A DNA stretch of 64,000 nt from Clostridiales bacterium (GCA_016278505.1 JADQBQ010000017.1:37357-101356), one strand, 5' to 3'; shown: positions 9,569-58,035, counted from the first letter of the stretch. Numbers and translations are program-made. The notes: generated by a model not told the origin, from the letters alone.

Positions 9569-9958
9569 TTGAAGGGAGGTTATGATTTGGCTGGTCAACA
9601 ATACAATCCTTTATCTTTCTTAATAATGTTAGGGCTGCTCAGCTTTTCGCCCGTGGAAAATGTTAACAAAGGACTGGAATCTTTGGGTTTTACGCTGGAT
9701 GCTACCGCTAGATCTCTGGAAAACGTTAAAACGGGCATAGATACCCTGGACAGTGGCTTACGACAATTTGCCCAATATAATACAGGCTACGCAAATTTGG
9801 AGTCCACTGATACCCACGGAACTAACTTCAATGATACCGACTTCGCTGGATCTGAATTCAATGCAACAGTAGATCAGAACCATGGCAATTCAGTTTCCTC
9901 AATGCCTGCAGACGCACCGGGACATAAGGGTGAAACTACCAACAGAGAAACGGAATGA
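9569..9958 (+). CDS. hypothetical protein with an 'SFLIMLGLLSF' motif
   Basis: 129-aa ORF. RBS gaagggagg, with a possible TTG start at 9587. Shares the hydrophobic LIML-LL motif with two neighbouring genes. Confidence 0.45.
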   Translation: MKGGYDLAGQQYNPLSFLIMLGLLSFSPVENVNKGLESLGFTLDATARSLENVKTGIDTLDSGLRQFAQYNTGYANLESTDTHGTNFNDTDFAGSEFNATVDQNHGNSVSSMPADAPGHKGETTNRETE

Positions 9959-10586: not shown

Positions 10587-10630
10587 AGATTTCTAAATTA
10601 TATGTTAAGGTGACTATAAATCAGAACAAG

Positions 10631-10668
10631 AAAAGCGTGCTAAATCAGTTCCCTTAACGCGCGCTTTT
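10631..10668. repeat. repeat module C (hairpin gcgcg-taagggaactgatt-agcgc with A/T runs), copy 1
   Basis: Reverse complement matches 16780..16822 (gtgcgcgctaagggaactgattgagcgcac). Confidence 0.8.
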
Positions 10669-10687
10669 CAGTACTTTTTTCCTTTGT

Positions 10688-10727
10688 CCTTGCCATTTAT
10701 AAATGGCAAGGTATACTTTCCTAAAGT
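10688..10727. repeat. repeat module B (palindrome ccttgccat-N-atggcaagg plus tatactttcctaaagt), copy 1
   Basis: The same module occurs at 57525..57560 and, inverted, at 16726..16762. Confidence 0.85.
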
Positions 10728-10740
10728 GTAAAAAAATAAA

Positions 10741-11924: not shown

Positions 11925-11950
11925 TTACATAAACCTCCTTTGTTATTAAT

Positions 11951-13495
11951 CTAACCTTTAGCTCCGCAGGGAATGGTAATCGTATCACCAACCTTAAGGT
12001 TCTGAGGATTTACCCCCGGGTTGGCGGCAATAATGGCGTTAACAGTAGTACTATACCTTTGGGCCAGCTCGAAAAGAGTATCTCCCTGTTTAATGGTGTA
12101 ATCAATTGTTTCACCGGGTAGACACACATCAGGTTCTTCTATCATTTCGGCAGTAACAACTTCCCGCTGCATAGATTCGGTAACTCTTACCCTTACCTTC
12201 ATTACCAATTCCACATGTACATTACAACTTTCATAATCAGACTTGATGTACTCCACTATGGGTGTAACCATTACATTCATACCGTTCTCCGCACCCGGGA
12301 TTTCCACAAATGTACGGAAATTAATACGCTGGTGCATGGAATGAACCGGCTGGTCATCCAGTGCAGCCACGTAGATAATATTCACATCAACATAGCCGCG
12401 TAGGATTACTTTGTTATTAATAACTTTGCTCTCTGTAATCTTTACTTCCTTGGCAGTGGTATCCAAAACCTTTTCCACATCAGGTTTGGGGTCCGGTGTC
12501 TCAAAGGACTCCCTTAAGACCACCTGGGCAGAATCTTCACCCACAACACTTTCAATATTGAGCAGTGTTTTCTCAAAAGATACCCCTGCAACCTCGGTTA
12601 CCACGTTAATCTGCTTGGGCTCCATTACCCTGGCATTAAGTTCCAGCACAATGTAAGCAGTCAAGCTGTCGGCGTACGCGCCCTTGGTTTCCACATCTAC
12701 ATCTTCTACATAGGCATCCACTTCCACGTTCATGCCCGGAGCTGCCCCGGGGACTTCGATAAAGTGGCTAAAACTAAAGCTTTGATGCATGTTGTGCACC
12801 GGCTGGCTTGGTTCAAAGGCCACGTATGTTACTTGTATGGTCACTTCACCGTCAATGATAACCTTATCCTTGACAATGCGCGTATCCGTAATAGTAGTCT
12901 GAGTATCCACATCCAGAATCTTTTCCACGGGCGGTTTTTCCGCAGGCACCTCAAATTCATCACTAACAATTACCTGTGAACTTTCTTGGTTAACTAGATC
13001 ATCAACATTAATCATTTCGGACTCTACATCATACCCGGGGACATCTACCACTACTTCAATCTGGCGGTTCTCGGTTACCTTGGCAGACACCTCTAAAACA
13101 GCCGCCACATCGAAATCCCGTGGTTTTTTATTACTGCGGTTCACGCTCACGTCCTCAATATCAATATCAACTTTTACATTCATATCAGGGGTAGCGCCGG
13201 GGACGTCAACATAACCGGTAAAATTAATCTGTTCGTGCATATGATGTACGGCCTGGTCTGGTTTAAAAGCCACATAGACAACTTGCAGCGTAAGCGTTCC
13301 CTCAATAATGACCTTGTCAGGGACGATGCTGATATCTTTTACCGTGGCCGTTCTATCCACGGACAAAATCTCATCCACATCCGGTTTTGGGTCGGGTACG
13401 GTAATTGTACCTCGCACAACAGTTTGAGCGGTTTGCTCATTAACCACTTGGTTTATTGTTAGTTGTTCTGTAACCGGTGCCACTTGTGCAGCCAT
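11951..13495 (-). CDS. spore-coat-assembly-type protein: 3x SPOCS/DUF3794 repeats plus C-terminal LysM
   Basis: Three ~130-aa internal repeats (VPDPKPDV(D/E)(E/K)IL..D....), each ending ...PG..P.MNV.V. C-terminal LysM YTIKQGDTLFELAQRYSTTVNAIIAANP...LKVGDTITIP. The ATG at 13495 (RBS aaaggaggag) is preferred over the ORF-track start at 13558. Confidence 0.75.
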   Translation of the reverse strand: MAAQVAPVTEQLTINQVVNEQTAQTVVRGTITVPDPKPDVDEILSVDRTATVKDISIVPDKVIIEGTLTLQVVYVAFKPDQAVHHMHEQINFTGYVDVPGATPDMNVKVDIDIEDVSVNRSNKKPRDFDVAAVLEVSAKVTENRQIEVVVDVPGYDVESEMINVDDLVNQESSQVIVSDEFEVPAEKPPVEKILDVDTQTTITDTRIVKDKVIIDGEVTIQVTYVAFEPSQPVHNMHQSFSFSHFIEVPGAAPGMNVEVDAYVEDVDVETKGAYADSLTAYIVLELNARVMEPKQINVVTEVAGVSFEKTLLNIESVVGEDSAQVVLRESFETPDPKPDVEKVLDTTAKEVKITESKVINNKVILRGYVDVNIIYVAALDDQPVHSMHQRINFRTFVEIPGAENGMNVMVTPIVEYIKSDYESCNVHVELVMKVRVRVTESMQREVVTAEMIEEPDVCLPGETIDYTIKQGDTLFELAQRYSTTVNAIIAANPGVNPQNLKVGDTITIPCGAKG

Positions 13496-16595: not shown

Positions 16596-16686
16596 TTAGC
16601 ACACTATATTGGAAAGGGAATTTAAAACAAAGAAAAAATCCGGAGAAACAATCACCGGACCAGATGGTTAACAAAGCTGTGTAGTT

Positions 16687-16995
16687 AACCTGTCTTTTAC
16701 GCCCGCTCATTCATTTCATCTCGCACTTTAGTAAAGCATACCTTGCCATATATATGGCAAGGGCTACGGTGTAACGTATAAAAAAGTGCGCGCTAAGGGA
16801 ACTGATTGAGCGCACTTTTTTTACAGGCCAGGCTAGAGCTCAGTCTCACGCTCCAGCGGGGTTCCCGCCCCATCCGCCGTCCTGGCTCAGGGGGCGACCT
16901 CGCACGTCCTGTGCTCGGCCCCGCTTACACTTATCGACTTCGCTAAGCCTGGCAGCTGCTCGATTCAATTCATTTGCTCTGCGCAAAAGACAGGT
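16687..16995 (-). repeat. repeat family A copy 3 (inverted orientation) with a nested 100-bp insertion of modules B and C
   Basis: 16687-16725 and 16826-16995 are collinear with the reverse complement of 49199..49408. 16726-16825 is extra sequence made of module B (16726-16762) and module C (16780-16822). Confidence 0.85.
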
Positions 16996-17038
16996 TGGTC
17001 ATTAGTCTCGTCGGAGTAACAATCTCCGGATCTTCCTT

Positions 17039-18223
17039 CTAATTTTTCTCGCAGATTATTTTAGCAAGTTTCCTGCCGGTCTCTTTAACACTTTGCAGCT
17101 CATCGTCATCCGGGACATACTGAATATTGAGTAATTCGTGCGGAATTTCCCAATTCATATCCTTAAGAACCTCTTCTACATGTCGTGCTCCCTGGCCACC
17201 CCAACCGTAAGAGCCAAAAGCAAGTCCAATGCGGTTTTTGGGACGTAATCCCTTTACATAGGTTAGAAAACCGGCAACTGTGGGAAGCATACCGTTATTC
17301 AAAGTCGAGGACCCCACTAGAACAGCTTTGGATAGTAATACATCGGTCATTATCTCCGACATGTGGCTTGTTTGTAGAAAGCGGGTCGTAACCGGGATAC
17401 CGGCATCCTCCAGCCCGTTGGCCAGCGCGTTAGCGATTTCCTTGGTGGAACCCCACATGGTATCGTAAACAATAAGCGCCTTTTGGTCAGTTTCATGGTT
17501 TGCCCACTTAGGGTAAACTTCCAGAAGTTGTGGTATAAAAGACCGCCATATCACCCCGTGACTAGGGGCAATCATATCAATAGGTAATTGTCCCAGCACA
17601 TCCAAAGCTTTTTTTACCTGGTCCCCGTAAGGCAGGACAATATTAGCATAGTACGTGGCCGCCTCTTCATGGACTATGTCCCAACCCAGCTGATCATCGA
17701 AACGTTCCGTGCTGCCAATATGTTGCCCAAAGGCATCGTTGGGCAACAGCAGCTTGTCTTCAGGAATATAAGTAACCATGGAATCAGGCCAGTGAACCAT
17801 AGGGGTCTGCACAAACTTTAAAGTATGGGAACCCAGATTCATTTCATCACCGGACTTTATAATCTGATATTCCCACTCCTTTTTGTAGTGCCTTTCCAGC
17901 CCTTTTTTGCCCTTATCGGAGGTAATAATTTTAGCCTCCGGGGCAACTTCCATAATTTTGGGGACACTGCCGGAATGGTCCATCTCCACATGGTTTACTA
18001 CCAGATAATCAATTTTTGCCGGATCAATTATATCCTTTATACGCTCCAGCATTTCCTCAAAAAGATAGTGTTTTACGGTATCCACCAGGGTTATTTTATC
18101 ATCCACAATTAAGTACGCGTTATAAGTAGTACCCCGGGGAGTCAGATAACCATGAAAATAGCGAAGGTTCCAATCAATACCGCCCACCCAGTATATTTTT
18201 GGCTTAATTTCCACAGCCTTCAT
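17039..18223 (-). CDS. fprA: flavodiiron protein (FprA-type A flavoprotein; metallo-beta-lactamase-like plus flavodoxin domains)
   Basis: 394 aa. The di-iron motif HVEMDHSG sits in the N-terminal beta-lactamase-like domain and the C-terminal domain is flavodoxin-like (VYDTMWGSTKEIA). Confidence 0.9.
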   Translation of the reverse strand: MKAVEIKPKIYWVGGIDWNLRYFHGYLTPRGTTYNAYLIVDDKITLVDTVKHYLFEEMLERIKDIIDPAKIDYLVVNHVEMDHSGSVPKIMEVAPEAKIITSDKGKKGLERHYKKEWEYQIIKSGDEMNLGSHTLKFVQTPMVHWPDSMVTYIPEDKLLLPNDAFGQHIGSTERFDDQLGWDIVHEEAATYYANIVLPYGDQVKKALDVLGQLPIDMIAPSHGVIWRSFIPQLLEVYPKWANHETDQKALIVYDTMWGSTKEIANALANGLEDAGIPVTTRFLQTSHMSEIMTDVLLSKAVLVGSSTLNNGMLPTVAGFLTYVKGLRPKNRIGLAFGSYGWGGQGARHVEEVLKDMNWEIPHELLNIQYVPDDDELQSVKETGRKLAKIICEKN

Positions 18224-18933: not shown

Positions 18934-19021
18934 TAGCATTACCAGTTTTTTTTATTACAATTTTACCTTCATACTATATGTAATTTGATTAAAGAATATA
19001 ATTTAACACCAGGATGACAAT

Positions 19022-19057
19022 AACTCAACAAAAGTGCCTGGCACCGTATGTTGAGTT
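19022..19057. repeat. small palindromic repeat (family F), copy 1
   Basis: aactcaacaaaagtgcctggcaccgtatgttgagtt matches the reverse complement of 49132..49172 (aataagtcaacaatcgtgcctggcacttttgttgacttatt). Confidence 0.7.
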
Positions 19058-24209: not shown

Positions 24210-25841
24210 CTACCAATCAAGGTTATAAATTAGTATGAGTCTACTTTCATCCTGCTCCATGGCATGCAGATGCTTACCGGATAACATTTGCAAACTATGC
24301 TTGCCCCATATATTTTGGTGTATTGTATCACCCTTTTCCAGGACAATAATCTTTTTCATATAGTTCTCCAGCAATACTCGATCGACATCTTCCGTATTTA
24401 ACAATTCCGCGCTCAAAGTATTCAATAACTCGTTAACATCTGTATCTTTGGACACAGTGGTTGCTTGGTCGTATTGCTTTTGTATACGGTGTTTTAACAG
24501 CCCTATTTCGCCTTTTATAGCATCAACTGCCGCCAAATAAATCTGCTCTGAAATTATTCCCCGCACCCTATCCATGTAGGCAATCTGCAGTTGCCGGTTT
24601 CGCCGGGCAACCTCATTTTCTATTCGTTCAATGTTTGTATCTGAATTCTTTAGCCCACTGCTTTCTTGCCGGTATTTTTCGATTAACTGTTGCTGAAAGG
24701 AAATACCTTTTGCCATGTACTTAATGTCTCTAATTATATAGTCAGCCAGTGTTTTTTCATTAATATAATGGCTGGAGCAACCTTTCCGGCCAAACCTGTT
24801 GTACTGCCCACAAATATAACCCGCCGCCCCGCTTCTTTTCTTGCGGTATGTATGATTGCTTCCACAGGCTGCGCAAACTAAAAAACCGGTAAAAAGGTGA
24901 GGCTCGGCCTGGCCCTTCCTTTTCCTTCCCTGACCTTCCCGGCATCTTTTTTCCCGTATCTGCTGGGCAAGGGCAAAAGTTTCCCGGCTAATCACAGGTT
25001 GGTGAGTATCTGCAACCACAATCCACCTTTCACTGTCAAGTCGCCTGGTTTTCTTGGATTTAAAAGAAACCTTTTCACTCACCCCCTGCACAGTATCTCC
25101 GCAGTATACCCTATTCTTAATGATGCGGCGGATGTGCTGTTCGTTCCACCTCCTGGCCTGAGCAGCACCGGCATAACCTTTGTCCTGACTTGGCGTGGGG
25201 ATACCCATACTCTGAACATATTCAGCTAGGGCCCTATAACCCCACCCGCTTATATATAAGTCAAATATTTCACCAATAATATCTTTATAACGCTCATCCA
25301 CTACAAGTTTATTTTTCTGCTGCCCCGATTTTAAATAACCAAAAGGGGGTCGCCCTAAAAATTGCCCGTTTTGCATCTTCTTTCTTAAATTATAACGCAC
25401 CTTTTTTGATATATCCCGTGCATAATGCTCATTGACCCAGGTTCTAATGCCAATAGTGTCATCATCATCTCTAAAACTGTCATAATTATCTCCCAGTGCA
25501 ATTAATCGAATATCCTTTTCTCTTAAAAAATCTAAGAATGTTAGCGTTTCCCCGTTATTTCTCCCCAACCGGGATAAATCCTTCACGAGAACAGTATTAA
25601 CGCTGCCTTCATTGATGTCTTTTACCAACTGTATCAATCCCGGCCGGTCAAAACAGGTACCCGATATATCACTGTCCACGTAAAAGCCAAAAGCCCCCAG
25701 TTCATATTGCTCTACGAAACTTTGAAGCAATTGGCATTGTGTTTCCAAACTTTCATCTCTCTCACCATTTTCGTTCACGCTCAGCCGGGCATATATAGCC
25801 ACCCTGCCGCTGTTATCCACGGAACTCTCGTTGAAGGTCAT
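24210..25841 (-). CDS. large serine recombinase (SpoIVCA/CisA/SprA-like)
   Basis: 543 aa. N-terminal resolvase catalytic domain (VAIYARLSV with the nucleophile Ser, plus VLVKDLSRLGRN), a recombinase domain, a Cys-rich zinc ribbon (CAACGS...YICGQYNRFGRKGCSSH) and a C-terminal coiled coil. Confidence 0.95.
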   Translation of the reverse strand: MTFNESSVDNSGRVAIYARLSVNENGERDESLETQCQLLQSFVEQYELGAFGFYVDSDISGTCFDRPGLIQLVKDINEGSVNTVLVKDLSRLGRNNGETLTFLDFLREKDIRLIALGDNYDSFRDDDDTIGIRTWVNEHYARDISKKVRYNLRKKMQNGQFLGRPPFGYLKSGQQKNKLVVDERYKDIIGEIFDLYISGWGYRALAEYVQSMGIPTPSQDKGYAGAAQARRWNEQHIRRIIKNRVYCGDTVQGVSEKVSFKSKKTRRLDSERWIVVADTHQPVISRETFALAQQIREKRCREGQGRKRKGQAEPHLFTGFLVCAACGSNHTYRKKRSGAAGYICGQYNRFGRKGCSSHYINEKTLADYIIRDIKYMAKGISFQQQLIEKYRQESSGLKNSDTNIERIENEVARRNRQLQIAYMDRVRGIISEQIYLAAVDAIKGEIGLLKHRIQKQYDQATTVSKDTDVNELLNTLSAELLNTEDVDRVLLENYMKKIIVLEKGDTIHQNIWGKHSLQMLSGKHLHAMEQDESRLILIYNLDW

Positions 25842-27672: not shown

Positions 27673-28491
27673 ATGAGTACCGTGATAGCAGCCGTTATCC
27701 CCTCCCAAAATGAAATACTCACCATTCCCAAGGTTTTAAATTCTTTAAAACAAGTTCCGGTAGATATCATTATTCCGGTAATCAACGGTACTACCGATGG
27801 AAGTTTAGAATTTATTAGGAAACTAAAAGGTGAGCAACTGTACCCCGTTTGTTTTCCGGAACCCCTGGGTATCGACGTTCCCCGGGCAGTCGGGGCTAAG
27901 ATCGCCCGAGACCTTAAAGCTTTCATGGTTATTTTTATCGACGGAGACATGTCCGGAGACATCGGCCAGAACATTAAGCAACTGGTTGAGAGTGTACTAG
28001 AGGATAGGCTGGACTTGGCTCTTACCGACTGCTACCCCCATTCCCATCCAAGGTATATTTCCCCCTTGGCAGCAAAGGTTCTGGAATTTAGGAAAAACCT
28101 CAATATTGAACTATCTCAAGATCACCTTGGTACAGCATCGCCATCCCACGGACCGCACGCCATTTCACGCCGGCTTTTAGAAATCACTCCTGTAGAATAC
28201 TTTGCCCTCCCCCCCACATTGCTGGTTATTGCTGTACAAAAAGACTTTAAAATAGGTATAGGCACATCAGTTGATCACTCTGCTTTGGGCTCTCAATTGA
28301 AAACCGCCCTCCATTCCAGCCTTATAGCGGATACAATCGTGGGGGATTGCATAGAAGCTTCACAACTGTTTAAGGGACTTCCCCGCCACCGCTGCTTAGA
28401 ATACAATAAATATATTGGTTACCATAACACCAGGCGGTGGGACCTACTTGCAAAGTTTTTAGAGCATAGGATAAAAACTGACTGTACTTAG
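27673..28491 (+). CDS. GT-A-fold glycosyltransferase-like protein
   Basis: 272 aa. N-terminal AAVIPSQNE (like the GT2 IP.YNE motif) and a DxD-like FIDGDMSGD. Specific function unknown. Confidence 0.55.
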   Translation: MSTVIAAVIPSQNEILTIPKVLNSLKQVPVDIIIPVINGTTDGSLEFIRKLKGEQLYPVCFPEPLGIDVPRAVGAKIARDLKAFMVIFIDGDMSGDIGQNIKQLVESVLEDRLDLALTDCYPHSHPRYISPLAAKVLEFRKNLNIELSQDHLGTASPSHGPHAISRRLLEITPVEYFALPPTLLVIAVQKDFKIGIGTSVDHSALGSQLKTALHSSLIADTIVGDCIEASQLFKGLPRHRCLEYNKYIGYHNTRRWDLLAKFLEHRIKTDCT

Positions 28492-28495
28492 AGAA

Positions 28496-28608
28496 CGAGT
28501 TGAGAGTGAACTCGTTCAGCTTAAACTGAACACCGGAGCGAAAGAGAAATTCCCACTTCTAGAAGTGGGAATCTTAAGGGCTCCGTTATGGTTCATGTGA
28601 GTTTAGAC
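28496..28608. repeat. repeat module D, copy 1
   Basis: gtgaactcgttcagcttaaactgaacaccggagcgaaagagaaattcccacttctagaagtgggaatcttaag is about 85% identical to 57561..57643. The end motif ggttcatgtgagtttagac recurs at 39423..39441. Confidence 0.85.
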
Positions 28609-33027: not shown

Positions 33028-34578
33028 CTACTCCTCCAGAGTCTCCAAGTCAATACGCGGGAACAGTGGCTTGCCCTTTTGCATCGTGGTCTTAGCCATA
33101 TTGCCCCAGGTCAAAGAATCCCAGGTATGCAACTCAGTTTGCCCCTCCAGCCCCAAAAGAGGCCAGGCACGCGGCGGGAAATCAGGCATAATAGGAGTCA
33201 CCATCACAGTAACCATACGCATACACTCCGCCACATTATACAGCACATCATTACACCGCTGCTTCCTTTCCGGGTCCCTTGCCAGGGCCCACGGGGAGGT
33301 TTCCTCCAGGTACTTATTCGCTCTACCCACCAACTGCCAGACAGCAGCCAAAGCATTGGAAATATCCATGCGCTCCATCAAATTTTCCACTGTTTGCGGC
33401 GTCTTTTGTGCTAATTCAATAAACTCTTGATCCGGTCCTTCAAGCGCTGTGGGCTTTTCCAAATGGCCGTCAAAATATTTTTTCACCATGGCCGCCGTAC
33501 GGTTAAATAAATTGCCCAGGTCATTGGCTAAATCCTGATTTATCCGTTGTACCAAGGCTGACTCGGAATAATAACCGTCGGAACCGAAAGGCAGTTCTCG
33601 CAATAAGTAATAGCGTATGGCGTCTAACCCGTACTTATCTATCAATACCAGGGGATCAACCACGTTTCCCTTGGACTTACTCATCTTTCCGCCCTCTAAT
33701 AGCAGCCAGCCGTGTGCAATAACCTGTTTGGGCAAAGGCAGTTCTGCCGCCATAAGAATAATGGGCCATATAATAGCGTGAAAACGAACTATATCTTTAG
33801 CCATCAGGTGAACATCAGCAGGCCAAAATTTATTATATTTGCTCTCATCTTCACTGCCGTAGTCCAGAGCTGAAATGTAATTGGTCAGGGCATCTATCCA
33901 CACGTAAATCACATGCTTGTGGTCAAATGGCACCTGAATTCCCCAATCAAAAGTGGTTCTGGAAACGCACAAGTCCTCCAGGCCGCTGTTAATAAAACTA
34001 ACCATTTCATTGCGCCTGGATACCGGCTGTATAAACTCAGGATTATCATCTATGTGTTGGAGCAACCGACTCGCATATTTAGACATCCGGAAAAAGTAAC
34101 TCTCTTCCTCCATGAATTCCACCGGCCTGCCACAGTCCGGACAATTCCCTTCTTCCAGCCGGGCATCAGTCCAAAATGTTTCACAAGGCGTACAGTACCA
34201 ACCTTTATAGCCCGCTTTATAGATATCGCCCTGGTCGTACAACTGTTGGAAAATTTTTTGTACCGTCCGCTGGTGCCGCTCTTCTGTAGTCCGAATAAAA
34301 TCGTCGTTGGTTATTTTTAATTTGTCCCAGAGGTTTTCAAATCCCGCAACTATTTTATCTACATACTCTATCGGTGACTGTCCCTTGGCCTTGGCTGTGC
34401 GCTCAATTTTCTGGCCGTGCTCATCTGAGCCGGTAAGGAACCATACTTCATGGCCGGTTAGCCGCTTAAACCTGGCCATTGCATCTGCAGCCACCGTTGT
34501 ATAGGCATGGCCTATATGCAAGTTATCGCTGGGATAATAAATGGGCGTCGTAATGTAGAATGTGTTATTTTGCGACAT
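33028..34578 (-). CDS. metG: methionine--tRNA ligase (short form without the C-terminal tRNA-binding domain)
   Basis: 516 aa. HIGH-type motif NLHIGHAY, KMSKS motif, and zinc knuckle CPDCG. Confidence 0.95.
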   Translation of the reverse strand: MSQNNTFYITTPIYYPSDNLHIGHAYTTVAADAMARFKRLTGHEVWFLTGSDEHGQKIERTAKAKGQSPIEYVDKIVAGFENLWDKLKITNDDFIRTTEERHQRTVQKIFQQLYDQGDIYKAGYKGWYCTPCETFWTDARLEEGNCPDCGRPVEFMEEESYFFRMSKYASRLLQHIDDNPEFIQPVSRRNEMVSFINSGLEDLCVSRTTFDWGIQVPFDHKHVIYVWIDALTNYISALDYGSEDESKYNKFWPADVHLMAKDIVRFHAIIWPIILMAAELPLPKQVIAHGWLLLEGGKMSKSKGNVVDPLVLIDKYGLDAIRYYLLRELPFGSDGYYSESALVQRINQDLANDLGNLFNRTAAMVKKYFDGHLEKPTALEGPDQEFIELAQKTPQTVENLMERMDISNALAAVWQLVGRANKYLEETSPWALARDPERKQRCNDVLYNVAECMRMVTVMVTPIMPDFPPRAWPLLGLEGQTELHTWDSLTWGNMAKTTMQKGKPLFPRIDLETLEE

Positions 34579-34589
34579 GGTTATTCCCT

Positions 34590-34905
34590 TCCTTTATTGT
34601 TTTTAATTCACTAAGTGCCTTCACTAAAAAAACCCTCACCCCTGGCCAGGGGCGAAGGTTTGCCTCCGCGGTACCACCCTATTTGGTATTTCCTGATGGA
34701 AATACCCTCAGTGAGAACAAGGAACTTTCCCCGGTTCTCCGAACATGATAACGGTGTTCACCCGTCCTGACCTACTAGCCCTGACAGGGCTTTCAGCCGG
34801 CAGCTCCGGAGCCATGTTCAGTCCTTTCCCCGGCGGGCTTACACCATCCCCGCTCGCTTTAACAGGTACATGAACCTACTCTTCTCCTTCTACGCCTAAT
34901 AATGC
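34590..34905 (-). promoter_or_regulatory. T-box leader (tRNA-sensing riboswitch) controlling metG
   Basis: The minus strand carries the T-box sequence AAUAGGGUGGUACCGCG (complement of 34667-34683). A terminator hairpin ccttcgcccctgg/ccaggggtgaggg plus T7 follows (34626-34659). An upstream AGAGA/GUA-like stem I region is present, and an AUG triplet (complement of 34813-34815, context GAACAUGGC) is a candidate Met specifier. Confidence 0.85.
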
Positions 34906-49122: not shown

Positions 49123-49131
49123 GACTGCTTC

Positions 49132-49172
49132 AATAAGTCAACAATCGTGCCTGGCACTTTTGTTGACTTATT
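49132..49172. repeat. small palindromic repeat (family F), copy 2
   Basis: aataagtcaacaa-tcgtgcctggcac-ttttgttgacttatt. Inverted relative to copy 1 at 19022..19057. Confidence 0.7.
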
Positions 49173-49198
49173 GCGGGTTACGATCTAGGCTAATGATA

Positions 49199-49408
49199 AA
49201 CCTGGCTTTTGCGCAGAGCGAATGAATTGAATCGAGCCGTGGCCAGGCTTAGCGAAGTCGATAAGCGAAAGCGGGGCCGAGCACAGGACGTGCGAGGCCG
49301 CCCCTTGAGCCAGGACGGCGAATGGGGCGGGTACCCCGCTGGAGCGTGAGACTGAGCCTTAGCCTGGCCCGGCGAGATGAATGAATGAGCGGGCGCATAA
49401 GACAGGTT
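49199..49408 (+). repeat. repeat family A, copy 1 (uninterrupted ~210-bp GC-rich multi-hairpin element)
   Basis: Termini aacctggcttttgcgcagagcgaatgaattgaatcgag ... gcgagatgaatgaatgagcgggcgcataagacaggtt form an imperfect terminal inverted repeat. Internal pairings include ccaggcttagc/gccttagcctgg, agcgggg/ccccgct and ccgcccc/ggggcgg. Copies lie at 57679..57972 and, inverted, at 16687..16995. Confidence 0.9.
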
Positions 49409-49500
49409 GACCCACCAAGCCTTCGGTCACCCCCTTGATCTAAGAATGGCTTATGAGCAGGCGGAAAAAAGATGCTAGCTATACAACTTTGGCAACAACG

Positions 49501-56535: not shown

Positions 56536-56806
56536 AAGCCGTGCACCCACCTTCGAATGATGGCTTCCGGGCGTTACTCCAGCAGGTAGCTCGAGTCAGG
56601 CACCCTCGCGGCACCCGGAGGGACTTCCTTAGTGCTGCTTCCGTCAGGATCTGACACAGTTCAGAAGACTCCGTCGCGCAAGACCCGGCCGTCAACACCC
56701 CTTACAGGAGCCGGACCCCACAAGCCAAACCCTCCGGCAGGAATTCGGCCCTGCTATAGCGGATTGCAGGTTCAGGGCACCGCTACCTCCCCACCTAGCA
56801 CGGCAA
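56536..56806 (-). ncRNA. ffs: signal recognition particle RNA, large Bacillus type with Alu domain (scRNA)
   Basis: The minus strand reads GCCGUGCUAGGUGGGGAGGUAGCGGUGCCCUGAACCUGCAAUCCGCUAUAGCAGGGCCGAAU...GUCAGAUCCUGACGGAAGCAGCACUAAGG...GGUGGGUGCACGGC. This resembles B. subtilis scRNA as recalled, including the domain IV GGAAGCAGC motif. It sits just upstream of dnaX, and a hairpin plus T-run follows at about 56493-56530. The ends are good to about 5 nt. Confidence 0.9.
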
Positions 56807-56821
56807 ATATAAAAATAAAAA

Positions 56822-56916
56822 TGGCGGAGAGAGAGGGATTCGAACCCTCGAGACGATTTCAGTACCGCCTACTCGCTTTCCAGGCGAGCGCCTTCAGCCA
56901 ACTCGGCCATCTCTCC
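56822..56916 (-). tRNA. tRNA-Ser (anticodon GGA)
   Basis: GGAGAGAUGGCCGAGUUGGCUGAAGGCGCUCGCCUGGAAAGCGAGUAGGCGGUACUGAAAUCGUCUCGAGGGUUCGAAUCCCUCUCUCUCCGCCA. It has a 7-bp acceptor stem, anticodon loop CU-GGA-AA, a long class II variable arm, a GGTTCGAAT T-loop and an encoded CCA. Confidence 0.95.
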
Positions 56917-57376: not shown

Positions 57377-57477
57377 TTAATTAATACCTCCTTATTTCTA
57401 GTGTTAACCTTTTGTCCTTAATTAATAAGCCAATATTGAAAAATCGCCACAAAAAAATGAATTAATAAAATAACTAA

Positions 57478-57972
57478 GACCAATGACGACCTTACTTTTG
57501 CGCACAGCGAATAAATTGAATCGATTGCCATATATATGGCAAGGTATACTTTCCTAAAGTACGAGATGAAGTGAACTCGCTCAGTTAAAGCTGAACATCG
57601 GAGCTAAAGAGAGACTCCCACTTCTAGAAGTGGGAGTCTTAAGAATCAGATTAAGATGTAATTTTAGACCAATGACGACCCTGTCTTTTGCGCAGAGCGA
57701 ATGAATTGAATCGAGCAACTGCCAGGCTTAGCGAAGTCGATAAGCGGAAGCGGGACCGAGCACAGGACGTGCGAGGCCGCCCCCTGAGCCAGGACGGCGG
57801 ACGGCAATGGCATTAAGACTGTTTTCTGAATAGTAACTTTTATCTATGCCATTGCGGAAACAGCTGGTCTTAATTAGGAAGCTTAGTAATTTGGGAATCC
57901 CGCTGGAGCGTGAGACTGAGCTTTAGCCTGGCCTGCGAGATGAAATGAATGAGCGGGCGCAAAAGACAGGTT
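57478..57972 (+). repeat. ~500-bp composite repeat array: partial A (57478-57524), module B (57525-57560), module D (57561-57643), and full A copy 2 (57679-57972) carrying a ~99-bp apical insertion
   Basis: Each block matches other loci: A = 49199..49408, B = 10688..10727, D = 28496..28577. In A copy 2, 57800-57898 replaces the 13-nt apical sequence aatggggcgggta of copy 1 and contains its own inverted repeat ggcaatggcat/atgccattgc. Confidence 0.85.
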
Positions 57973-58035
57973 AGAAAAACTAAATTTTCAAGCCCGCAGG
58001 TTCATCAGTATGAGTTAGTTTATACCTTTAGCATT

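Follow-up and report, generated by a model that had tools for sequence, protein, structure and literature searches.

We analysed a GC-rich intergenic repeat, here referred to as family A, in a 64,000-nt stretch of DNA (the window) from a Clostridiales bacterium (GCA_016278505.1, JADQBQ010000017.1:37357-101356). With slightly better than even confidence, we consider family A to be a dispersed, probably mobile repeat of ~250 bp, resembling transposable elements of the miniature inverted-repeat kind (MITEs), REPIN and ERIC, that carries a strand-specific RNA module similar to the TwoAYGGAY motif and is passively transcribed. The evidence comes from a long helix with regularly spaced tandem G·A mismatches and an apex of two adjacent hairpins with the same GGA-containing loop, both of which were found again in a homologue with changed helix sequence, and from a full-length match to TwoAYGGAY below the Rfam gathering score. 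The three copies in the window are denoted by c49, c57 and c16 (Table 1).

Copies of family A and their relatives

A first-pass annotation of the window had reported three copies of ~210 bp and a fragment of the 5′ end. All four sites were confirmed, with the ends given in Table 1, and the identity between copies, estimated by eye at 85-90%, was computed as 92-93%. The length of ~210 bp held for the core, while the true unit is longer (~250 bp) since a left and a right linker belong to it. The GC content of family A was 0.62 compared to 0.45 in its flanks and in the window, and every copy was intergenic and adjoined terminator-like hairpins, as had been described. The element is also non-coding, since its longest open reading frames (ORFs) were 46-49 aa and indels of 1-2 nt separate the copies. 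Its terminal inverted repeats (TIRs) are 15-16 bp long with 0-2 mismatches per copy; the 15-nt sequence ACCTGTCTTTTGCGC was found 7 times at ≤3 mismatches against 1.66 expected, and none of 100 shuffles reached 7.

The c49 copy lies between the por-operon terminator and addB, antisense relative to both neighbours. Both c57 and c16 are longer than c49 because each holds a nested insertion of foreign sequence. The insertion in c57, denoted by family C, is not an assembly artefact, as c57 has the same structure, insertion included, in the independent JGI assembly L017. In all sequence examined, family C was found nowhere but in c57 and this counterpart.

Relatives were found by scans with the conserved 19-21-mer core of H1, one of the two apical hairpins. 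Contigs L007 and L008 (the latter found again as L027), from related organisms, hold full copies with 91% identity. They share an orthologous copy upstream of secA, of which the L008 version is missing the 5′ 150 nt. A diverged homologue with the same fold was identified in L006, a 67%-GC bioreactor (digester) contig, and it matched the covariance model R1 from end to end with 115.8 bits.

The left linker (12-15 nt), with the motif AGRCYAATGAY, was present 5′ of all four family A 5′ ends in the window (16994-17008 on the minus strand, and from 49187, 57477 and 57666 on the plus strand), and elsewhere in the window the motif had a single unrelated site, at 2 mismatches. That it is an independent target element was considered and rejected, as the motif is restricted to sites adjoining family A. 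It is not conserved in L007 and L008. The right linker forms a small hairpin sharing the last bases of the closing helix P1, and its counterpart in c16, GGTTAAC...GTTAACC, covaries with it. Between copies, the linkers are far more divergent than the structured core, which suggests constraint or homogenisation of the core.

Fold of the element

The long branched hairpin proposed in the first-pass annotation was recovered on the plus strand of c49, with a minimum free energy (MFE) of -112.3 kcal/mol (z = -8.95 vs dinucleotide shuffles). It is closed by the helix P1, followed by a rod of ~45 bp built of short Watson-Crick steps and, between them, 5-6 tandem G·A/A·G mismatches. In c49, 5 of the internal loops are exact GA/GA 2x2 loops and 8 have GA on both sides; in five homologues, each has 4-6 of the former and 7-9 of the latter, including L006 despite its changed helix sequence. 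The TIRs described earlier thus correspond to the 16-bp P1, whereas the arms inward of P1 are not simple inverted repeats but are G·A-paired on one strand. At the apex, a three-way junction bears the hairpins H1 and H2, both with a 5-nt loop in the context C-AGGAC-G (49284-49290 and 49311-49317), and a GA/GA loop lies under both apical stems.

Strand specificity and covariation

The plus strand was 10-24 kcal/mol more stable than the minus strand in every homologue. The MFE of the minus strand was -95.1 kcal/mol in c49, and the values for plus and minus strands were -114.6 and -90.2 in L007 and, after removing the insertion, -105.5 and -84.5 in c16. This difference is due to the exact GA/GA loops, which are conserved in L006. 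When the arms of the GA region were compared, 19 of 25 positions were alike as direct repeats and 14 of 25 as reverse complements; therefore, family A is not a DNA palindrome and would pair only when single-stranded, and on one strand only. One-sided changes in the stems, with 7 G·U against 2 A·C, are a weak test of the strand and point in the same direction as the stronger signal from the G·A loops.

Covariation was tested on an alignment of 6 sequences to the model R1, in which 96.4% of the cells were paired. Both sides had changed in 28 of the 68 pairs, compared to 2-7 in slid controls and 6.3 +/- 2.2 in shuffles, none of which (0/500) reached the observed value. Compensatory changes were also found among close copies: G-C to A-U in P3, the junction helix, at two different positions (c57 and L007), U-A to C-G in P1 (L007 and L008), and A-U to C-G in the GCAG/CUGC step of c49. 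In L007 and L008, a paired C...G insertion lengthens the apical stem of H2, and H2 covaries in L006 as well, a homologue in which the fold is kept with compensatory changes. The picture of a dead repeat without covariation and with random decay, raised in the first-pass annotation, does not apply to the whole family, although individual copies are decaying.

Resemblance to TwoAYGGAY and other RNA families

The first-pass annotation had recognised no named RNA family, and indeed no Rfam gathering threshold was reached. However, the best and only credible Rfam match of c49 was a full-length, sub-threshold one to TwoAYGGAY (RF01731, clan CL00106), with which it shares its architecture. The match was on the GGA strand. 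A scan of 301 nt gave it 25.1 bits (E = 0.077), with model positions 1-168 covered by the cmscan alignment, and the gathering score of RF01731 is 43 bits. TwoAYGGAY was also the best Rfam match of L014 (29 bits, E = 0.0084), a gammaproteobacterial contig with an exact H1. The sequence of H1 was not found in the TwoAYGGAY seed alignment.

In the TwoAYGGAY motif, the loops of the two hairpins are identical and contain GGA, P1 is often very large, and several copies from Psychromonas ingrahamii are in its published alignment (Weinberg et al. 2010, PMC2864571). It has tandem GAs in its stem and was proposed to sequester CsrA in Clostridia (PMC4333381). Family A resembles it in the three-way junction with two adjacent hairpins bearing the same GGA-containing loop and the long closing P1, as seen in the MFE and alifold structures, in the tandem GA pairs of the stems, and in being multi-copy, as TwoAYGGAY is in at least one genome (P. 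ingrahamii). The hosts of TwoAYGGAY are Clostridia-type Firmicutes and Gammaproteobacteria, and that of family A belongs to a Desulfotomaculia-like lineage. Unlike TwoAYGGAY, family A has its P1 extended into the ~45-bp rod with 5-6 regularly spaced GA/GA loops, and it has conserved linkers, nested insertions and the behaviour of a dispersed repeat. On sequence grounds, we class family A as a divergent variant related to TwoAYGGAY and not as a member of it, because of the sub-threshold score, the AGGAC loops, the regular GA rod and the repeat-element behaviour. Another two-hairpin motif of Firmicutes, Bacillaceae-1 RNA (RF01690), has a reverse complement that matches the CsrA-binding motif (PMC4333381). 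It gave no Rfam match with family A, and its architecture is different, without a long P1 or a GA rod.

As in CsrB and RsmZ, GGA motifs of family A are in hairpin loops, both of 5 nt. However, family A has two GGA sites per unit, whereas the known sponge RNAs have 4-22; it lacks a predicted promoter at the four copies searched, and it has many dispersed copies instead of one to few dedicated genes. The loop CAGGACG fits what we take to be the CsrB repeat, CAGGA(U/C/A)G, the 27 nt between the two GGAs are presumably within reach of a CsrA dimer, and we assume that clan CL00106 is the Csr/Rsm clan. In Firmicutes, CsrA is known to be antagonised by the protein FliW and not by RNA, and we know of no RNA antagonist of CsrA in this phylum. 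The chemotaxis genes found in L017 suggest motility only. Retrons, group II introns, omega or bridge RNAs and IS200/IS605 ends were considered as well and dropped, as there was no Rfam signal, no adjacent reverse transcriptase, TnpB or IS110 gene, and the architecture was wrong.

Host, further copies and carriers of H1

The genes beside c49 are addB and addA, and the closest named relatives of AddB were from Desulfofundulus, Desulfotruncus and Desulfotomaculum (58-60% identity). An assignment of these large neighbours as rpoB and rpoC was rejected. An exact look-up of a neighbouring protein returned no record. The source is an uncultured Desulfotomaculia-like Bacillota, and the window represents an origin-proximal housekeeping region of its genome.

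Two JGI contigs, L001 and L002, have an identical addB with different upstream genes, and the switch is inside the element, giving two more distinct 3′ halves. They are chimeric around 9620-9830, with Ga0326302_100014 and Ga0326300_100036 joining addB to two different, non-adjacent loci. Five other contigs from JGI or Logan (L003, L017, L018, L020 and L021) end within or beside the c49, c57 and c16 copies. These partner switches and contig ends inside the element indicate a real multi-copy repeat that defeats short-read assembly; in practice, short-read metagenome assemblies of this lineage are broken or wrongly joined at family A. The count was at least 5 distinct full copies and a fragment in ~90 kb of distinct sequence of the source organism. 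No further copies were found beyond the ends of the window or by a covariance-model search of all loci examined. A 30-mer from the 5′ end of family A, a pattern too strict since L007 and L008 differ there, gave zero matches in a genome collection that does not include the source organism. A protein-database search with a spurious 80-aa ORF on the minus strand of the element returned only the L008 locus again (L027).

The exact H1 (19-21 nt, CCGAGCACAGGACGUGCGAGG) was also identified in otherwise different intergenic elements with twin or single hairpins (Table 1). In the soil contigs L004 and L005, H1 is paired with a GCC-AUGGA(U/G)-GGC hairpin, upstream of nuoE and pyrG; these two and L014 have one AUGGAU or AUGGAG loop and one AGGAC loop. 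Matches in L009, L012, L015 and L016 were rejected as relatives, being chance matches in GC-rich coding sequence.

In L022, from an organism with 67% AddB identity, the por-addB synteny is kept and family A is absent from that spacer. The spacer (L022 9530-9830) has two copies of a different repeat of ~65 nt with GCGGCAUGGAUG / GGCGGCAUGGGGG. Breaks ~130 nt upstream of addB were likewise found in contigs of this organism (L023 and L024) and of a further relative (L025).

Insertion sites and mobility

Several features of family A fit a non-autonomous mobile element: its copies are at unrelated loci and in both orientations, there are nested insertions and a truncated orthologue (L008), and the orthologous spacer of a relative (L022) lacks it. 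It shares with ERIC/IRU, RUP, Correia and REPIN/BIME elements the small size, lack of coding capacity, TIRs, occurrence in multiple intergenic, terminator-proximal copies in both orientations, and internal insertion variants (as in ERIC); such elements can be co-transcribed and fold into stem-loops. It differs from them in having no parent insertion sequence (IS) or RAYT identified in the loci examined and no constant target-site duplication (TSD), and also in its strand-specific tandem G·A pairing, an asymmetric twin-hairpin apex resembling a protein site, and a fold that is kept in a sequence-diverged homologue.

No transposase was found in the 64-kb window or in the flanking loci, according to the Pfam listings of the loci examined. 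No homologues of family A were found in plasmids or phages by BLAST in distant mode, and viral contigs gave only chance matches in coding sequence. Thus, no IS or transposase with matching ends was found in any of these sources, a match that the first-pass annotation had suggested looking for. The window has one recombinase-type gene, a large serine recombinase (Table 1), and nothing ties family A to it.

Flanking direct repeats were 29 nt in L008, 19 nt in c16 and at most ~5 nt in c49, and there were none for c57 or L007, so that no TSD of fixed length was found among these five copies. In c16 and L008, it is the whole local terminator hairpin that is duplicated on both sides, with the T-run at the distal copy only and the element in sense orientation behind the upstream gene. 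The two hairpin copies flanking c16 are identical at 17 of 19 positions (score of 28, compared to a shuffle maximum of 25), and those flanking the L008 copy (11945-11973 and 12228-12256) at 28 of 29. At 19 and 29 nt, these duplications are unusually long, and it is structure that defines them. They would be explained if the element integrated at the foot of an extruded palindrome; these are two cases only, and the other three copies show nothing comparable.

Transcription context

No sigma-70-like promoter was predicted at c49, c16, c57 or the L008 copy, so transcription is most likely passive: judging from sequence features, the copies would be transcribed with their neighbouring genes. Both c16 and the L008 copy separate a gene from its T-run terminator. 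Relative to the nearest co-directional gene, c16, the L008 and L007 copies and both L001/L002 copies are in sense orientation, and c49 and c57 are antisense. In c16 and in the L008 and L002 copies, the right linker is followed by a terminator-like hairpin, and a bidirectional terminator is present ~90 nt downstream of c49. In L008, TATAAT is present 9 nt before P1.

Interpretation of family A

In the reading that we favour, copies of family A, which sit in terminator-proximal intergenic DNA, would have no promoter of their own and would be transcribed as 3′ untranslated regions (UTRs), 5′ UTRs or read-through of their neighbours. What the element conserves would be a structure formed by one particular single strand, and not ends for a transposase to bind. 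The sense RNA would fold into a very stable rod, the apex of which would present a twin GGA site to a dimeric RNA-binding protein. Less firmly, this protein might be CsrA, and the copies might collectively act as a distributed CsrA sink and/or as 3′-end stabilisers. Binding of CsrA to the apex appears to us possible rather than probable; CsrA is the leading candidate because of the published TwoAYGGAY hypothesis and the fit of CAGGACG to the presumed CsrB repeat. A further scenario, which we consider quite improbable, is that the RNA module spreads itself by a previously undescribed, cruciform-directed integration: it would integrate at the foot of a terminator hairpin, duplicate the hairpin and so preserve termination, and add a protein-binding twin-GGA rod to the 3′ UTR of whichever gene it follows, building a post-transcriptional, CsrA-type regulon or sponge in a Firmicute.

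Several observations weigh against the favoured reading. Most of the covariation is contributed by a single divergent sequence, L006, and the alignment had been fitted to the model; moreover, complementarity would persist in any palindromic DNA element. The score of c49 for TwoAYGGAY is 25 bits against a gathering score of 43, and L006 had no TwoAYGGAY match at all in the Rfam scan. The loops are A-GGA-C instead of AYGGAY, with the GGA and the flanking A and Y kept and the Y between A and GGA missing. Neither csrA nor fliW was found in the ~300 kb of sequence examined, which is uninformative for the rest of the genome. At c49 and c57, which have an antisense orientation relative to their neighbours, transcription may not include the GGA strand. 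Finally, other repeats interrupt 2 of the 3 window copies, and the copy that L008 shares with L007 is 5′-truncated in L008, indicating that individual copies are dispensable.

The first-pass annotation had left the choice between a MITE-like element and a dispersed structured RNA, and each description proved right in part. An ordinary MITE, namely an IS shortened by deletion and moved in trans by a DDE transposase acting at the 16-bp TIRs, with the hairpin and GGA loops incidental, is unlikely in our opinion. The near-perfect TIRs covary between lineages as co-evolving ends would, the copies are 91-93% alike, intergenic only and in both orientations, the nested insertions and the truncated orthologue indicate neutral decay, and the direct repeats flanking two copies could be target duplications. 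However, no transposase was found in the window or flanking loci, plasmids, phages and viral contigs gave no match, and flanking repeats of 29, 19, ~5 or 0 nt are no fixed TSD. Moreover, the arms of the GA region are not reverse complements and pair only via strand-specific G·A mismatches, these mismatches and the asymmetric two-hairpin apex are kept in L006 despite the changed helix sequence, and the linkers diverge much more than the structured core. The strand-specific fold would also be compatible with a structure acting at the level of single-stranded DNA, since it is built on tandem G·A pairs in Y-GA-R contexts, which have stability in DNA as well. Family A would then be, like REPINs, a substrate of an HUH/Y1 enzyme (RAYT or an IS200/IS605-like TnpA) or of another structure-specific integrase, with the twin hairpins as dimer sites. 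A dimer would be well served by two equal hairpins of one orientation, family A shares with REP/BIME its high GC content and its extragenic, terminator-proximal position, and two insertions exactly at the foot of a terminator palindrome, which they duplicated, suggest structure-directed integration. We nevertheless judge this distinctly unlikely: no Y1 or HUH gene was present in any locus examined, a long closing TIR helix is absent from REP and IS200/IS605 elements, which target short conserved tetranucleotides without producing duplications, and it is an RNA motif that family A resembles best in the databases.

Independently transcribed small RNA genes, that is, CsrB/RsmZ-like sponges with their own promoter and terminator multiplied by duplication, are very improbable. 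The GGA hairpins, the TwoAYGGAY resemblance, the terminator-like hairpins after or near the right linker and the TATAAT of L008 fit such genes, but no sigma-70-type promoter was detected at the four copies searched, the left linker, which L007/L008 do not conserve, is too short for a -35 element, each locus has a different, local sequence as its downstream terminator, and the copies tolerate insertions of 88-100 nt. We give hardly any credence to an assembly artefact or chance similarity. The JGI contigs L001 and L002 are chimeric at family A; however, the same copies, with the c57 insertion, recur in independent JGI and Logan assemblies, and family A is also present in other organisms, so the chimeric contigs are a result of a real repeat and not its cause.

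If the dispersed repeat with a TwoAYGGAY-like module that we favour is correct, family A would lend itself to binding tests as a clean, compact variant of high stability in which tandem-GA platforms carry two identical CAGGACG loops, and natural "mutants" such as c57, in which the 3′ arm of H2 is missing, are available. It would also be evidence that motifs of the TwoAYGGAY type can spread as dispersed repeats, and, should a regulator bind the apex, passive transcription of dozens of copies would create a distributed sink for it. To our knowledge, no function has been assigned to TwoAYGGAY since 2010, CsrA binding being the sole hypothesis. Two features are unusual in themselves, namely a regular G·A rod of the (GAAU)n type and, at two insertion sites, a whole terminator hairpin in duplicate.

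Other repeats and features of the window

Table 1. Coordinates of family A copies, their parts and insertions, exact-H1 carriers and other features; positions are those of the window unless a contig is named
Feature	Position	Strand	Remarks
c49 core	49199-49408	+	compact 210-nt form of family A
c49 full unit	49187-49436	+	uninterrupted: left linker, 210-nt hairpin, right linker; 242 bits to covariance model R1
Left linker of c49	49187-49198	+	AGGCTAATGATA; motif AGRCYAATGAY
P1, 5′ arm	49199-49214	+	left TIR; 16-bp closing helix
GA rod, 5′ strand	49215-49270	+	2-9-bp Watson-Crick steps split by GA dinucleotides (GC-GA-AU-GA-AUU-GA-AUC-GA-GC ... GC-GA-AGUC ...)
Apical three-way junction	49271-49339	+	P3 (GCGGGG/CCCCGC) encloses H1 and H2
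H1	49277-49297	+	CC-GA-GCAC-(AGGAC)-GUGC-GA-GG, loop in brackets; invariant in all copies, identical in unrelated bacteria
H2	49298-49330	+	CCGCCCC-UUGA-GCC-(AGGAC)-GGC-GAAU-GGGGCGG; same CAGGACG loop as H1, above tandem GA
GA rod, 3′ strand	49340-49392	+	likewise GA-rich on the plus strand
P1, 3′ arm	49393-49408	+	right TIR
Right linker of c49	49409-49436	+	~27 nt; small hairpin sharing last P1 bases (GGTTGACC...GGTCACC)
c57 core	57679-57972	+	93% identical to c49 over both aligned blocks
c57 full unit	57666-58000	+	202 bits to R1; 3′ arm of H2 replaced or disrupted by insertion
c57 insertion, family C	57805-57892	+	88 nt, palindromic, foreign; within second apical hairpin
c16 core	16687-16996	-	92% identical to c49
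c16 full unit	16660-17011	-	sense orientation; 3′ region of flavorubredoxin-like gene (17039-18223); interrupted near its own 3′ end
c16 insertion, family B	16725-16823	-	~100 nt; bidirectional terminator hairpin and palindrome CCTTGCCATATATATGGCAAGG; family B also at 10628-10728
c16 terminator hairpin, proximal copy	17012-17030	-	TCCGGAGATTGTTACTCCG; no T-run after it
c16 terminator hairpin, distal copy	16641-16659	-	TCCGGTGATTGTTTCTCCG, then T-run
Family A 5′ fragment	57477-57524	+	left linker and first 36 nt; fused to family B piece (57525-57560) and family D (57565-57643)
Exact H1, L014	L014 5743-5872		gammaproteobacterium, Seongchinamella
Exact H1, L013	L013 4040-4125		Chromatiales metagenome-assembled genome (MAG)
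Exact H1, L010	L010 6240-6420		digester Bacillota MAG
Exact H1, L004	L004 60-170		soil contig
Exact H1, L005	L005 1290-1400		soil contig
Large serine recombinase	24210-25841	-	Resolvase/Recombinase/Zn_ribbon_recom, 543 aa
T-box leader	34645-34901	-	upstream of metG (33028-34578)
Large signal recognition particle RNA	56539-56803	-	annotated RNA
tRNA	56825-56916	-	annotated RNA

Other repeats were identified in the window. Family B (~100 nt) has a bidirectional terminator hairpin (AAAAAAGTGCGC...GCGCACTTTTTT) together with the palindrome given in Table 1; besides its copy inside c16, it is present between convergent genes (10628-10728) and, in part, fused to the family A fragment. Family D has two copies, at 28490-28580 and 57565-57643, which are 88% identical and have the terminal hairpin CTCCCACTTCTAGAAGTGGGAG. 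The region 57477-57972 is therefore a nest of four repeat families (A, B, C and D). Just upstream of addB, at 49131-49173, a hairpin with a 14-bp stem (CAATAAGTCAACAA...TTGTTGACTTATTG) was detected, and it was found again at 19018-19044 and in L008 (5151-5177); it may be a small repeat or a regulatory palindrome.

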